Assembly (NCBI RefSeq): GCF_965641715.1
Contig: NZ_OZ282453.1
Source of the DNA: Escherichia coli
GTDB taxonomy: Bacteria; Pseudomonadota; Gammaproteobacteria; Enterobacterales; Enterobacteriaceae
Length of the DNA stretch: 64,000 nucleotides
Direction: 5' to 3' (one strand)
The stretch's first letter is position 1. The number at the start of each line of letters is the position of its first letter. Below are positions 1-3,000 of the stretch, one piece after another. A program made the position numbers.

Positions 1-3000
1 TAACGGGAATCGATCCGTTCCACATTGGCGCAATGGCGGGACGTCAGTTACCGTTCCTGTCGGTTCTTGTGCCGTTCTGGCTGGTAGCAATGATGGACGG
101 CTGGAAAGGGGTGAAAGAGACGTGGCCAGCGGCGCTGGTTGCAGGGGGAAGCTTCGCTGTCACTCAGTTCTTTACCTCTAACTATATTGGTCCGGAACTG
201 CCGGATATTACTTCGGCGCTGGTGAGTATCGTCTCACTCGCTTTATTCCTTAAAGTCTGGCGGCCGAAAAATACCGAAACGGCAATCAGCATGGGACAAT
301 CCGCAGGTGCGATGGTGGTAAATAAGCCATCTTCTGGCGGTCCCGTGCCTTCAGAATATAGTCTGGGGCAAATCATTCGAGCGTGGTCACCGTTTTTAAT
401 CTTAACGGTGCTGGTCACCATCTGGACCATGAAGCCGTTTAAAGCGTTATTTGCTCCGGGCGGCGCGTTTTATTCACTGGTGATTAATTTCCAGATCCCT
501 CATTTGCATCAACAAGTGTTGAAAGCGGCACCCATTGTCGCCCAACCAACGCCAATGGATGCGGTGTTTAAATTCGACCCCCTCTCGGCTGGCGGCACCG
601 CTATTTTTATTGCGGCGATTATCTCTATCTTCATCCTCGGCGTGGGCATCAAGAAAGGGATTGGCGTCTTTGCCGAAACGCTAATTAGCTTGAAGTGGCC
701 GATATTGTCGATTGGCATGGTGCTGGCGTTCGCTTTCGTCACCAACTATTCCGGCATGTCCACCACGCTGGCGCTGGTACTGGCAGGTACAGGCGTGATG
801 TTCCCGTTCTTCTCACCGTTCCTCGGCTGGCTGGGGGTGTTCCTTACCGGCTCGGACACTTCTTCAAACGCCCTGTTTGGTTCACTGCAATCGACCACGG
901 CGCAGCAAATCAACGTCTCTGACACTCTGCTGGTGGCAGCAAACACTAGCGGCGGCGTAACTGGCAAGATGATCTCCCCGCAATCTATCGCCGTGGCCTG
1001 CGCCGCGACGGGCATGGTGGGCCGAGAATCTGAACTGTTCCGCTACACCGTGAAGCACAGTCTGATTTTTGCCAGCGTTATCGGCATTATCACGCTGTTG
1101 CAGGCGTATGTGTTTACCGGGATGTTAGTCTCGTAAATCAATAAAGCCGGATGATCGTCAATATCATCCGGCTTCATTTACATTATTCTGTCTTATTAAT
1201 TGAAAATTATTTCTCGCTTTATTATCCATGCAGCAATAATGTTTTGCGTTCAGATAACCTGCTAAATAATTAAGAGCGTGAGAATATCTATTTTTTTATG
1301 ACGCAAAACAAGTCTGTATTAATTATGTTCGCTTGATGAGCAAACACCGTTCTATCTGTTGCTTTTGCAATCTTAATCGTTAAAACTACCAACGAATTTA
1401 TATAGTTACGTTGTGAAATGTTGTTAATTTTTTGTTTATTGAAATTTCGTAAAAATAGCCAGATAGACATCGTATAGGGGTTATTCTTATAAATTTCACT
1501 TGTTTTCTATCAATGATGTCGTTTTCTTAAGAATGGAGGAAATTATTAAAGAAGATAAAGCATAAAACTATTTCTCCCAGTTACGAATTTTTTAACATTG
1601 TTTTGTCACTTGCGTTATTAATGAATAAGAAATTTAAATATAAGAAATCGCTTTTAGCGGCTATTTTGAGTGCAACCCTGTTAGCCGGTTGTGATGGCGG
1701 TGGCTCCGGATCTTCCTCCGATACGCCGCCTGTAGATTCTGGAACAGGGTCTTTGCCGGAAGTGAAACCTGATCCAACACCAAACCCGGAGCCGACGCCT
1801 GAGCCAACGCCGGACCCAGAGCCTACGCCAGAACCGACACCTGATCCTGAACCAACACCAGAACCGGAGCCAGAACCTGTTCCTACGAAAACGGGTTATC
1901 TGACCCTGGGCGGAAGCCAGCGGGTAACTGGTGCTACCTGTAATGGTGAATCCAGCGATGGCTTTACATTTACACCAGGCGACAAAGTTACCTGTGTGGC
2001 AGGGAACAGCACGACAATTGCTACCTTCGACACCCAGTCAGAAGCTGCGCGTAGCCTGCGTGCGGTTGAAAAAGTGTCGTTTAGTCTTGAGGACGCGCAA
2101 GAACTGGCGGGTTCCGACAACAAGAAAAGCAATGCGCTCTCGCTGGTCACCTCCATGAACAGTTGCCCGGCGAATACAGAACAGGTGTGCCTGGAGTTCT
2201 CCTCGGTGATCGAGAGTAAACGTTTCGACTCGCTGTATAAGCAAATCGATCTGGCACCGGAAGAGTTCAAAAAGCTGGTCAATGAAGAGGTGGAAAACAA
2301 TGCCGCGACTGATAAAGCGCCATCCACTCATACTTCACCGGTAGTCCCCGTCACGACTCCGGGAACAAAACCGGATCTGAACGCCTCCTTCGTGTCGGCT
2401 AACGCGGAACAGTTTTATCAGTATCAACCTTCGGAAATCATTCTCTCCGAAGGCCGACTGGTGGATAGCCAGGGATATGGTGTTGCTGGCGTCAACTACT
2501 ACACCAATTCAGGCCGTGGCGTGACAGGGGAAAATGGTGAATTTTCCTTTAGCTGGGGCGAAACCATCTCCTTTGGTATTGATACCTTTGAACTGGGTTC
2601 AGTGCGCGGCAATAAGTCGACCATTGCGCTGACTGAACTGGGTGATGAAGTTCGCGGGGCGAATATTGATCAGCTTATTCATCGCTATTCGACGACCAGG
2701 CAAAATAATACCCGTGTTGTGCCGGACGATGTACGCAAGGTCTTTGCCGAATATCCCAACGTGATCAACGAGATTATCAATCTCTCGTTATCCAACGGTG
2801 CGACGCTGGATGAAGGTGAGCAAGTTGTTAATCTGCCAAACGAATTTATTGAGCAGTTTAATACGGGTCAGGCCAAAGAGATCGATACCGCGATTTGTGC
2901 GAAAACCGACGGTTGTAACGAGGCTCGCTGGTTCTCGCTGACGACGCGCAATGTTAATGACGGCCAGATTCAGGGCGTTATTAACAAGCTGTGGGGTGTG

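Follow-up and report, generated by a model that had tools for sequence, protein, structure and literature searches.

The AT-rich DNA between glcA and sslE (positions 1137-1620 of the window, which is the whole stretch of 64,000 nucleotides analyzed here) is, with a probability of about 90%, the control region of the sslE-pppA-yghG-gspC-M operon (T2SS-beta), which is silenced by H-NS and StpA and boosted by Fis. H-NS silencing of this control region has already been published, and the observation of the earlier note, which had proposed it from the sequence, is correct but ordinary. In this study we determined the anatomy, composition and conservation of the region. Binding of H-NS and StpA, the block of open-complex formation, the dependence on temperature and Fis and the co-transcription of the operon were published for other strains. 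We infer the coordinates of the transcription start and of the promoter hexamers, and likewise that the strain studied here behaves like the strains investigated previously.

The intergenic region of E. coli comprises 484 bp. Its upstream edge is set by the TAA stop codon (1134-1136) of the glcA reading frame (33-1136, plus strand), and on its downstream side the N-terminus of SslE is encoded from position 1621 (MNKKFKYKKSLLAAILSATLLAGC, a lipoprotein signal peptide). Its GC content of 0.295 is the minimum among the 484-bp stretches of the 64-kb window (0.521 overall); equally low values were found in 0.1% of such stretches, and every one of them overlapped 1137-1620. The coding DNA on both sides has a GC content of 0.52-0.58. 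Thirteen A tracts or T tracts of four or more nucleotides lie inside the region, among them T7 (1291-1297) and T6 (1428-1433, 1588-1593). The earlier description of about 480 bp of AT-rich DNA with A/T tracts ahead of sslE was thus confirmed with exact coordinates. The GC content is uneven along the region and amounts to 0.39 in the first 40 bp or so (glcA terminator hairpin), to 0.31 in 1181-1393 and to 0.26 in 1394-1620. When the region was compared with complete E. coli genomes, it was matched in 4086 of 5426 at 90-99.6% identity.

The first of these segments carries an intrinsic-terminator-type hairpin of glcA. It coincides with an inverted repeat (1140-1155/1163-1178), and its RNA fold (-20.6 kcal/mol) was far more stable than that of shuffled sequences (z = -7.7). 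The hairpin still adjoins glcA in genomes in which an IS4 insertion took out the rest of the region. Of the 484 bp, about half are situated upstream of the putative promoter; some 227 bp correspond to a transcribed leader and some 40 bp to the glcA terminator.

Table. Coordinates of the features in and around the glcA-sslE intergenic region (positions in the window)
Feature	Position	Strand	Basis
glcA intrinsic-terminator-type hairpin, 12-bp stem, 7-nt loop, imperfect T tail	1144..1174	+	terminator scan
Equivalent of the active sslE promoter fragment in pQF50-sslE (Tan et al. 2016)	1137..1426	+	primer mapping
Fis-type 15-mer GTTCAGATAACCTGC, putative equivalent of published F1	1248..1262	+	G-N13-C scan
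T7 run, 6-8 T depending on strain	1291..1297	+	alignment
Three overlapping Fis-type 15-mers (1327-1341, 1331-1345, 1338-1352), putative equivalent of published F2	1327..1352	+	G-N13-C scan
Putative -35 hexamer TTGCTT, 3/6 matches, invariant in 7 strains	1359..1364	+	position from putative start 1394
Putative -10 element TAAAACT, weak, invariant in 7 strains	1381..1387	+	position from putative start 1394
Putative start of the sslE-pppA-yghG-gspC-M operon	1394	+	published distances
5' leader, about 227 nt, GC 0.26, most AT-rich part	1394..1620	+	composition; start putative
H-NS high-affinity motif TCGATAAATT, best match (+2 to +11, two mismatches)	1395..1404	-	motif scan
Predicted intrinsic-curvature peak	1490..1530, maximum near 1514	.	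own wedge-model calculation
sslE start codon ATG	1621..1623	+	same start in every RefSeq genome examined

The published promoter clone and its Fis sites provide the framework for the core promoter. Primers 5570 and 5571 (S1 Table, PMC5012682) mapped uniquely to 1137-1156 (plus strand) and 1405-1426 (minus strand), with two mismatches each. The fragment in pQF50-sslE gave 411 Miller units in the wild type vs 217 in a fis mutant (PMC5012682), and Fis was reported to activate this promoter via a site located just upstream of the -35 element (Tan 2016, PMC5012682). The two published sites are F1, which is centred at -138 and dispensable for Fis activation, and F2 (-41 to -68), which is needed for it and in which point mutations halved the promoter activity and abolished Fis activation (PMC5012682). 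It can be seen from the table that Fis-type sequences which may represent both sites are present here. Since F1 at -138, F2 at -41 to -68 and a clone end past +1 can all be reconciled at no position other than 1394 (give or take about 2 bp), we placed the transcription start there. The center of the F1-like sequence (1255) lies 139 bp from this position in our strain and 138 bp from it in UTI89-like strains, which have one T fewer in the run 1291-1297. The base at the putative +1 is a G here but an A in K-12 and in UTI89-like strains, and the K-12 equivalent of this position is 3119339 of NC_000913.3 (minus strand). The block made up of the F2-like sites and the core promoter (1327-1394) is the least variable of the region (8.8% variable columns). 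Judged by sequence, the region thus has what is expected of a Fis-activated promoter, namely Fis-consensus sites next to the putative -35 hexamer and a weak core promoter.

Promoter prediction, which had been suggested as a check, answered in two ways. A strict sigma-70 scan of 1000-1800 returned no consensus promoter (0 vs 2.6 in shuffled sequences), but under relaxed settings many weak candidates appeared, namely 14 combinations on the plus strand and 16 on the minus strand, which scored 7-8 of 12. The putative promoter was not among the best of these candidates and thus, consensus scoring is unable to place the start. The lack of a consensus promoter fits dependence on an activator. An alternative -10 element (TATAGT, 1401-1406, start near 1413) had a higher consensus score, but it disagrees with the published distances of the Fis sites. 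We also compared a 20-nt core-promoter word with genome contigs and obtained one near-identical contig of Escherichia sp. and one chance match in a Bacteroidetes MAG, which do not amount to a cross-genus footprint. In the literature, papers on GalR and CfaD mention sslE and place no site in 1137-1620, and a search of full texts turned up no paper that speaks of the 'yghJ promoter'.

The abundance of weak candidates suggests another explanation, which regards the stretch primarily as a 'promoter island' that traps RNA polymerase at weak, mostly non-productive sites on both strands, and H-NS binding as a generic consequence of this rather than a dedicated sslE switch. The K-12 region has indeed been listed as such an island (3117080_374 yghJ/glcA, PMC3661553), and in our region the relaxed scan gave about 30 weak sites on the two strands. 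However, the strict scan remained below the shuffled controls, operon transcription in two pathotypes was traced to one mapped start, and specific point mutations in F2 cut promoter activity by half (PMC5012682). We consider this explanation highly improbable as the whole account; the idea is compatible with an H-NS/StpA-silenced, Fis-boosted control region and no substitute for it.

The evidence for silencing comes from published experiments. The regulatory region of sslE (yghJ) is bound by H-NS and StpA, which keep the open complex from forming, and the 14-gene sslE-T2SS operon is a single transcript that is repressed at 22 °C (Yang et al. 2007, J Bacteriol 189:142, as summarized in PMC5012682). 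The purified proteins bound the region of strain H10407, for which AT-rich, curved DNA was predicted with BEND-IT. When hns was deleted, sslE mRNA rose 2.2-3.5-fold at 22 °C. At 37 °C the increase was 7.2-fold in EC958, compared with 1.7-fold in UTI89, where it was not complemented (PMC5012682). This small effect in UTI89 suggests that the term 'silenced' depends on strain and condition. The proposal of an H-NS-silenced promoter for sslE and the T2SS is therefore supported, with the qualification that silencing is conditional: repression is strong at 22 °C, lifts at 37 °C and is opposed by Fis. Panyukov & Ozoline 2013 (PMC3661553) compiled three ChIP-chip data sets, and in each of them the K-12 copy (yghJ/glcA) is occupied by H-NS; ChIP data are what the earlier note had advised to look up. 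It had also named absent occupancy and constitutive expression as grounds against its proposal, and both are contradicted by the ChIP-chip data and by the temperature- and hns-dependent expression.

Lang et al. list yghJ among the genes with multiple sequences resembling the H-NS motif. In the present region, matches to TCGATAAATT were not enriched when compared with dinucleotide shuffles (1 vs 2.0 expected with up to two mismatches, 15 vs 12.8 ± 3.3 with up to three) and thus, they are attributable to the AT content. Our own wedge-model calculation predicted a curvature of about 17-19 degrees per helical turn at its peak, which exceeds the window's 99th percentile, and placed the mean curvature of the region only within the top 5% of windows. 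Autocorrelation of AA/TT over the region indicated no phasing of A-tracts at 10.5 bp.

The putative leader deserves separate consideration. Its variability is unevenly distributed, with 30% variable columns in the first 75 nt (the highest value of the region) and 9% in the final 75 nt; the initial 30 nt of sslE contain none (0%). No recognizable Shine-Dalgarno sequence precedes the sslE start, and a GGAGGA at 1535-1540 is invariant across the aligned strains. The DNA of the leader probably also serves as downstream H-NS-binding DNA. That the leader is in addition a post-initiation control element, in which the conserved 1546-1620, the GGAGGA and the missing Shine-Dalgarno sequence govern ribosome loading or premature termination, appears unlikely to us, but it would account for the published screen, in which TypA/BipA, a ribosome-associated GTPase, and NusA emerged as positive regulators.

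Another explanation would shift the temperature control from H-NS on DNA to an RNA element of the AU-rich leader, such as a thermometer or riboswitch. The length of the leader, the conservation of its 3' part and of the beginning of sslE, the lack of a Shine-Dalgarno sequence and the post-initiation factors TypA and NusA recovered in the screen (PMC5012682) speak for such an element. However, the leader RNA did not fold more stably than shuffled sequences (z = -0.02), and for this reason we rejected the RNA thermometer. In the minimum free energy structure the start-codon region was unpaired, and an Rfam search of 900-1900 at E-values up to 1 matched no family. The high variability of the first 75 nt, unmatched elsewhere in the region, also argues against an RNA element. 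Moreover, regulation is seen at the level of mRNA and is gone in hns mutants (PMC5012682), and a promoter fragment that stops near +33 keeps its Fis control. On these grounds, an RNA-based switch is very highly improbable.

Finally, a small gene or sRNA missed by annotation might lie in the gap, and the reading frames 1151-1273 (plus strand), 1288-1470 (minus strand) and a frame of 10 codons at 1533-1565 (plus strand) would be candidates. Reading frames of 33-60 codons are present, and the invariant GGAGGA might be counted in their favor. On the other hand, no feature is annotated here among more than 4000 genomes, and the Rfam search gave no hit. The frame 1288-1470 crosses the run of 6-8 T and is shifted by it, the frame 1151-1273 begins within the terminator hairpin, and in the mini-frame 1533-1565 all three substitutions are nonsynonymous and no Shine-Dalgarno sequence lies upstream of its ATG. 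Because of the frame-shifting indels and the exclusively nonsynonymous changes we rejected these small frames as genes, and the probability of a hidden gene is practically negligible.

Silencing of sslE had been called xenogeneic, a label that is only an approximate fit here. The operon body (1621-18300) has a GC content of 0.541 vs 0.516 for the remaining window, and thus the AT-richness is confined to the control region. The operon, which ends beside the tRNA-Phe gene pheV, has been called a genomic island (PMC5554520), and only one of five foreign-gene predictors flagged the locus in K-12 (PMC3661553). About 20-25% of complete E. coli genomes are missing the operon. Both of the two sslE-lacking genomes we examined carry an IS4-associated deletion, which suggests that the absence in these two genomes is a secondary loss.

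SslE is a colonization factor that degrades mucin and is a candidate for vaccines; the type II secretion system headed by it also secretes heat-labile enterotoxin in ETEC. These roles imply that the control region decides when this equipment is deployed, that is, off outside the host and on at 37 °C. From left to right, the region would consist of the glcA hairpin, about 200 bp of AT-rich DNA with the Fis sites, the promoter, the leader and the sslE ATG. RNA polymerase would have to use a weak sigma-70 promoter (TTGCTT-N16/17-TAAAACT) with a start near 1394. H-NS together with StpA may polymerize on the AT-rich, partly curved DNA that flanks the start on both sides, and such a filament would prevent RNA polymerase from forming the open complex and keep the operon silent at ambient temperature. 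At 37 °C repression would weaken, and Fis bound next to the -35 element could then lift the intrinsically weak promoter, with the outcome that the SslE mucinase and its secretion machinery are produced in the host. Taken together, our data confirm the annotation of the region and provide window coordinates for the published terminator, Fis sites and core promoter and for the putative start and leader. They also correct one point: this is an AT-rich regulatory module ahead of genes of ordinary composition, and not a block of AT-rich foreign genes.

The closest relatives of this region are the yghJ (sslE) promoters of ETEC H10407 and of UPEC UTI89 and EC958, which represent the same locus; the published cloning and RACE primers map to our region with two mismatches each. 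The spacing of the Fis-type sites is identical to that of the ETEC/UPEC promoter, and our copy differs from the studied ones in a few changes, among them G for A at the putative +1 and T7 for T6 at 1291-1297. Among other systems, eltAB of ETEC, virF of Shigella, proU and bgl have AT-rich, partly curved DNA that extends across the promoter and the transcribed leader, as is predicted for the sslE region, and they too are repressed at low temperature and released from repression at 37 °C; the antagonism by Fis resembles that at virF. In contrast to these systems, the downstream AT-rich DNA is here a non-coding leader rather than the start of a coding region, and the genes are not AT-rich. The gspA/gspC region of T2SS-alpha, which H-NS silences (Francetic et al. 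2000), is also an H-NS-regulated control region of a T2SS operon and is also listed as an H-NS-bound promoter island (PMC3661553), but it is another locus with another sequence and involves divergent promoters. In addition, K-12 grown in the laboratory expresses practically no T2SS-alpha, in contrast to the expression of sslE at 37 °C. As for the promoter islands of K-12, the sslE region appears in Table 1 of that compilation as bound by H-NS in all studies (PMC3661553), and many weak promoter-like sites were found on both strands of our copy in the relaxed scan. However, most promoter islands give little productive transcription, whereas the sslE region contains a mapped, productive promoter that serves a 14-gene operon.

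The window opens inside the open reading frame of the glycolate permease gene glcA, and between its stop codon (TAA, 1134-1136) and the start codon of sslE (yghJ; ATG at 1621) there is a gap of 484 bp (1137-1620). An identical sslE start is annotated in all RefSeq genomes inspected and the encoded N-terminus is a lipoprotein signal peptide that ends in LLAGC. Annotated features inside the gap were found in none of the listed genomes. The GC content of the gap is 0.295 compared with 0.521 for the whole window; a value this low is reached by only 0.1% of the 484-bp windows, every one of which overlaps the gap. 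The gap, which also has 13 homopolymeric tracts of A or T four or more nucleotides long, lies far outside the window's own distribution, and the AT-rich region with A/T tracts described in the earlier note is confirmed. Four other low-GC patches (27912-28166, 40622-41033, 44934-45235, 51391-52005; GC 0.32-0.38) are all shorter and less AT-rich. Within the operon, an AT-rich patch (7216-7515, GC about 0.35) covers the junction between pppA (end at about 7319) and yghG/gspS-beta (start at about 7385), and may mark a promoter within the operon or another site for H-NS.

The earlier note interpreted this gap as an H-NS-type silenced promoter driving sslE and the T2SS, and published experiments on the same locus (PMC5012682, PMC3661553) back this reading. 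According to the summary of Yang et al. (2007) in PMC5012682, the 14 sslE-T2SS genes form a single transcript, and H-NS and StpA, which bind to its regulatory region and inhibit formation of the open complex, repress it at 22°C compared with 37°C. The same paper describes binding of purified H-NS to the AT-rich region, for which curvature is predicted. Deletion of hns raised sslE mRNA at 22°C 3.5-fold in UTI89 and 2.2-fold in EC958; at 37°C, EC958 showed a 7.2-fold rise and UTI89 one of only 1.7-fold (PMC5012682). In K-12, the yghJ/glcA gap is scored as occupied by H-NS in each of the ChIP-chip studies (Grainger, Kahramanoglou, Oshima; PMC3661553), and yghJ is among the H-NS-sensitive genes with multiple motif-like sequences (Lang et al., 2007). 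These data contradict the combination of lacking H-NS occupancy and constitutive expression, which had been named as refuting the proposal. Panyukov and Ozoline (2013; PMC3661553) also count the K-12 gap among the 'promoter islands', a view that is compatible with H-NS silencing but does not replace it.

When the gap was searched for the H-NS high-affinity motif TCGATAAATT, one match with up to two mismatches (1395-1404, +2 to +11) and 15 matches with up to three mismatches were obtained. Dinucleotide shuffles of the region yielded 2.0 and 12.8 ± 3.3 matches, respectively, and therefore the motif is not enriched beyond composition. No 10.5-bp AA/TT phasing was seen across the region. In a wedge model, which is indicative only, the region's mean curvature was among the highest 5% for windows of 484 bp, and peaks near 1514 (about 19 degrees per turn) and 1664 exceeded the 99th percentile of the window. 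Taken together, the region is robustly AT-rich, its predicted curvature is moderate and local, and its H-NS motif content is unremarkable. A 13-nt direct repeat, AAAAYTATTTCTC, is present upstream of the promoter (1203-1215) and in the leader (1564-1576) at a spacing of 361 bp, and is probably a chance product of AT-rich DNA.

The 5'RACE-mapped sslE start agrees with the ETEC start (PMC5012682), and since the primers with which Tan et al. (2016; PMC5012682) cloned the promoter map to the positions listed in the table, the active promoter and its start must lie upstream of 1426. Fis activates via F2, three overlapping clustered sites at -41 to -68, and the second Fis site, F1 at -138, is dispensable (PMC5012682). 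A start at 1394 would place the only Fis-type cluster at -67 to -42. The centre of the isolated Fis-type site would then be at -139 in this strain and at -138 in UTI89-like strains, whose T run at 1291-1297 is one T shorter. Because these spacings match all published numbers, we infer a transcription start at 1394 ± 2; at 1394 this strain has a G, in contrast to the A of K-12 and UTI89-like strains. Strains differ in the length of the T run (6 to 8 T), which lies between the two Fis-type sites, so that the F1-promoter spacing shifts by 1-2 bp. The core promoter implied by this start would be weak, which agrees with Fis dependence and with a strict scan that detected no consensus promoter. An alternative -10 (TATAGT, 1401-1406) looks better but misfits the published distances. 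A 20-nt core-promoter word recurs exactly in a Bacteroidetes MAG (2695-2714 of the contig); about 0.5 matches are expected by chance in 298 Gb and the flanks do not align, so that this match was ascribed to chance.

Features of the glcA-sslE region and its downstream flank (window positions unless an accession is given; variable columns from an alignment of seven E. coli strains)
Feature	Position	Strand	Details
Promoter-clone primers of Tan et al.	1137-1156 and 1405-1426		each maps uniquely
glcA terminator hairpin	1144-1174	+	12-bp stem, -20.6 kcal/mol, z = -7.7, imperfect T tail
Fis-type isolated 15-mer	1248-1262		G-N13-C scan
Fis-type cluster, three overlapping 15-mers	1327-1341, 1331-1345, 1338-1352		G-N13-C scan, sole such cluster found
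F2 and core promoter	1327-1394		8.8% variable columns
Putative -35	1359-1364		TTGCTT, implied by the proposed start
Putative -10	1381-1387		TAAAACT, implied by the proposed start
K-12 equivalent of the proposed start	NC_000913.3 3119339	-	
Putative leader	1394-1620		about 227 nt, GC 0.26, most AT-rich part of the region
Leader, first 76 nt	1395-1470		30% variable columns
Leader, last 75 nt	1546-1620		9.3% variable columns
sslE, first 30 nt	1621-1650		0% variable columns
sslE-pppA-yghG(gspS-beta)-gspC...M operon	1621 to about 18300		downstream of the gap
pheV (tRNA-Phe)	18423-18498	-	adjoins the end of the T2SS operon

Among the seven aligned strains (about 90-99% identity), the distribution of variable columns over the sub-regions fits constraint on two blocks, the promoter with its activator site and the region of translation initiation. 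The AT-rich DNA between these blocks varies freely, which fits the expectation if H-NS reads composition or shape and not a specific sequence.

Control by an RNA thermometer or riboswitch in the leader is not supported, since the leader folds at shuffle level (z = -0.02), Rfam gave no leader match and the published regulation of sslE is transcriptional and hns-dependent (PMC5012682). It is also unlikely that the gap conceals small genes: a 60-codon antisense ORF crosses the length-variable T run, a 40-codon ORF begins within the glcA terminator hairpin, and in a 10-codon ORF (1533-1565) every substitution seen changes the amino acid. This mini-ORF contains an invariant GGAGGA (1535-1540), 81-86 nt upstream of the sslE ATG. 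No recognizable Shine-Dalgarno sequence for sslE was found within 20 nt of the start codon (1600-1623), and TypA and NusA were positive factors in a published screen (PMC5012682). Because of these three oddities, which are not strong, we still allow a post-initiation role of the leader a slim chance.

The glcA-sslE region (query: window 1000-1800, 801 bp, gap plus gene edges; matches counted at ≥80% of query length) was present on the chromosome in 4086 of 5426 complete E. coli genomes, and the 484-bp gap alone matched in 4076 (90-99.4% identity, ≥80% of length). In both region-lacking genomes examined, an IS4 element sits directly 3' of the glcA hairpin, at the equivalent of about 1178, and an adjacent deletion removes everything from the AT-rich region into gspK; in these two genomes the absence is a secondary loss. 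The same junction (L007, 3179-4800; L009, 6041-7700) recurs in isolates from Brazil and Japan. The closest-matching intergenic region, that of strain Combat11I9, is 99.4% identical, as is the core flank past pheV, whereas identity is only 95.9% over the 18.4-kb block (window 1-18442) that contains the sslE-gsp operon. This contrast suggests that the operon is an allelic mosaic or has recombined internally. At pheV, Combat11I9 carries about 22 kb with integrase, AbiEii and helicase genes, and there is no island here.

Thus, the reading of the gap as an H-NS-silenced control region is supported, but earlier publications had already established it for precisely this locus; our analysis adds the positions of the published elements in the window and the limitation of AT-richness to the control region. 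The term 'xenogeneic', which the earlier note attached to the silencing, applies only loosely. The control region is AT-rich, but the operon body has a GC content of 0.541 (0.516 in the remainder of the window) and only one of five foreign-gene predictors flagged the K-12 locus (PMC3661553). One group terms the locus, which adjoins pheV, a genomic island (PMC5554520). The locus is a locally AT-rich control module preceding genes of ordinary composition, and AT-rich foreign genes are not what H-NS coats here. At sslE, H-NS is a thermoregulatory repressor, as it likewise is at eltAB and virF.
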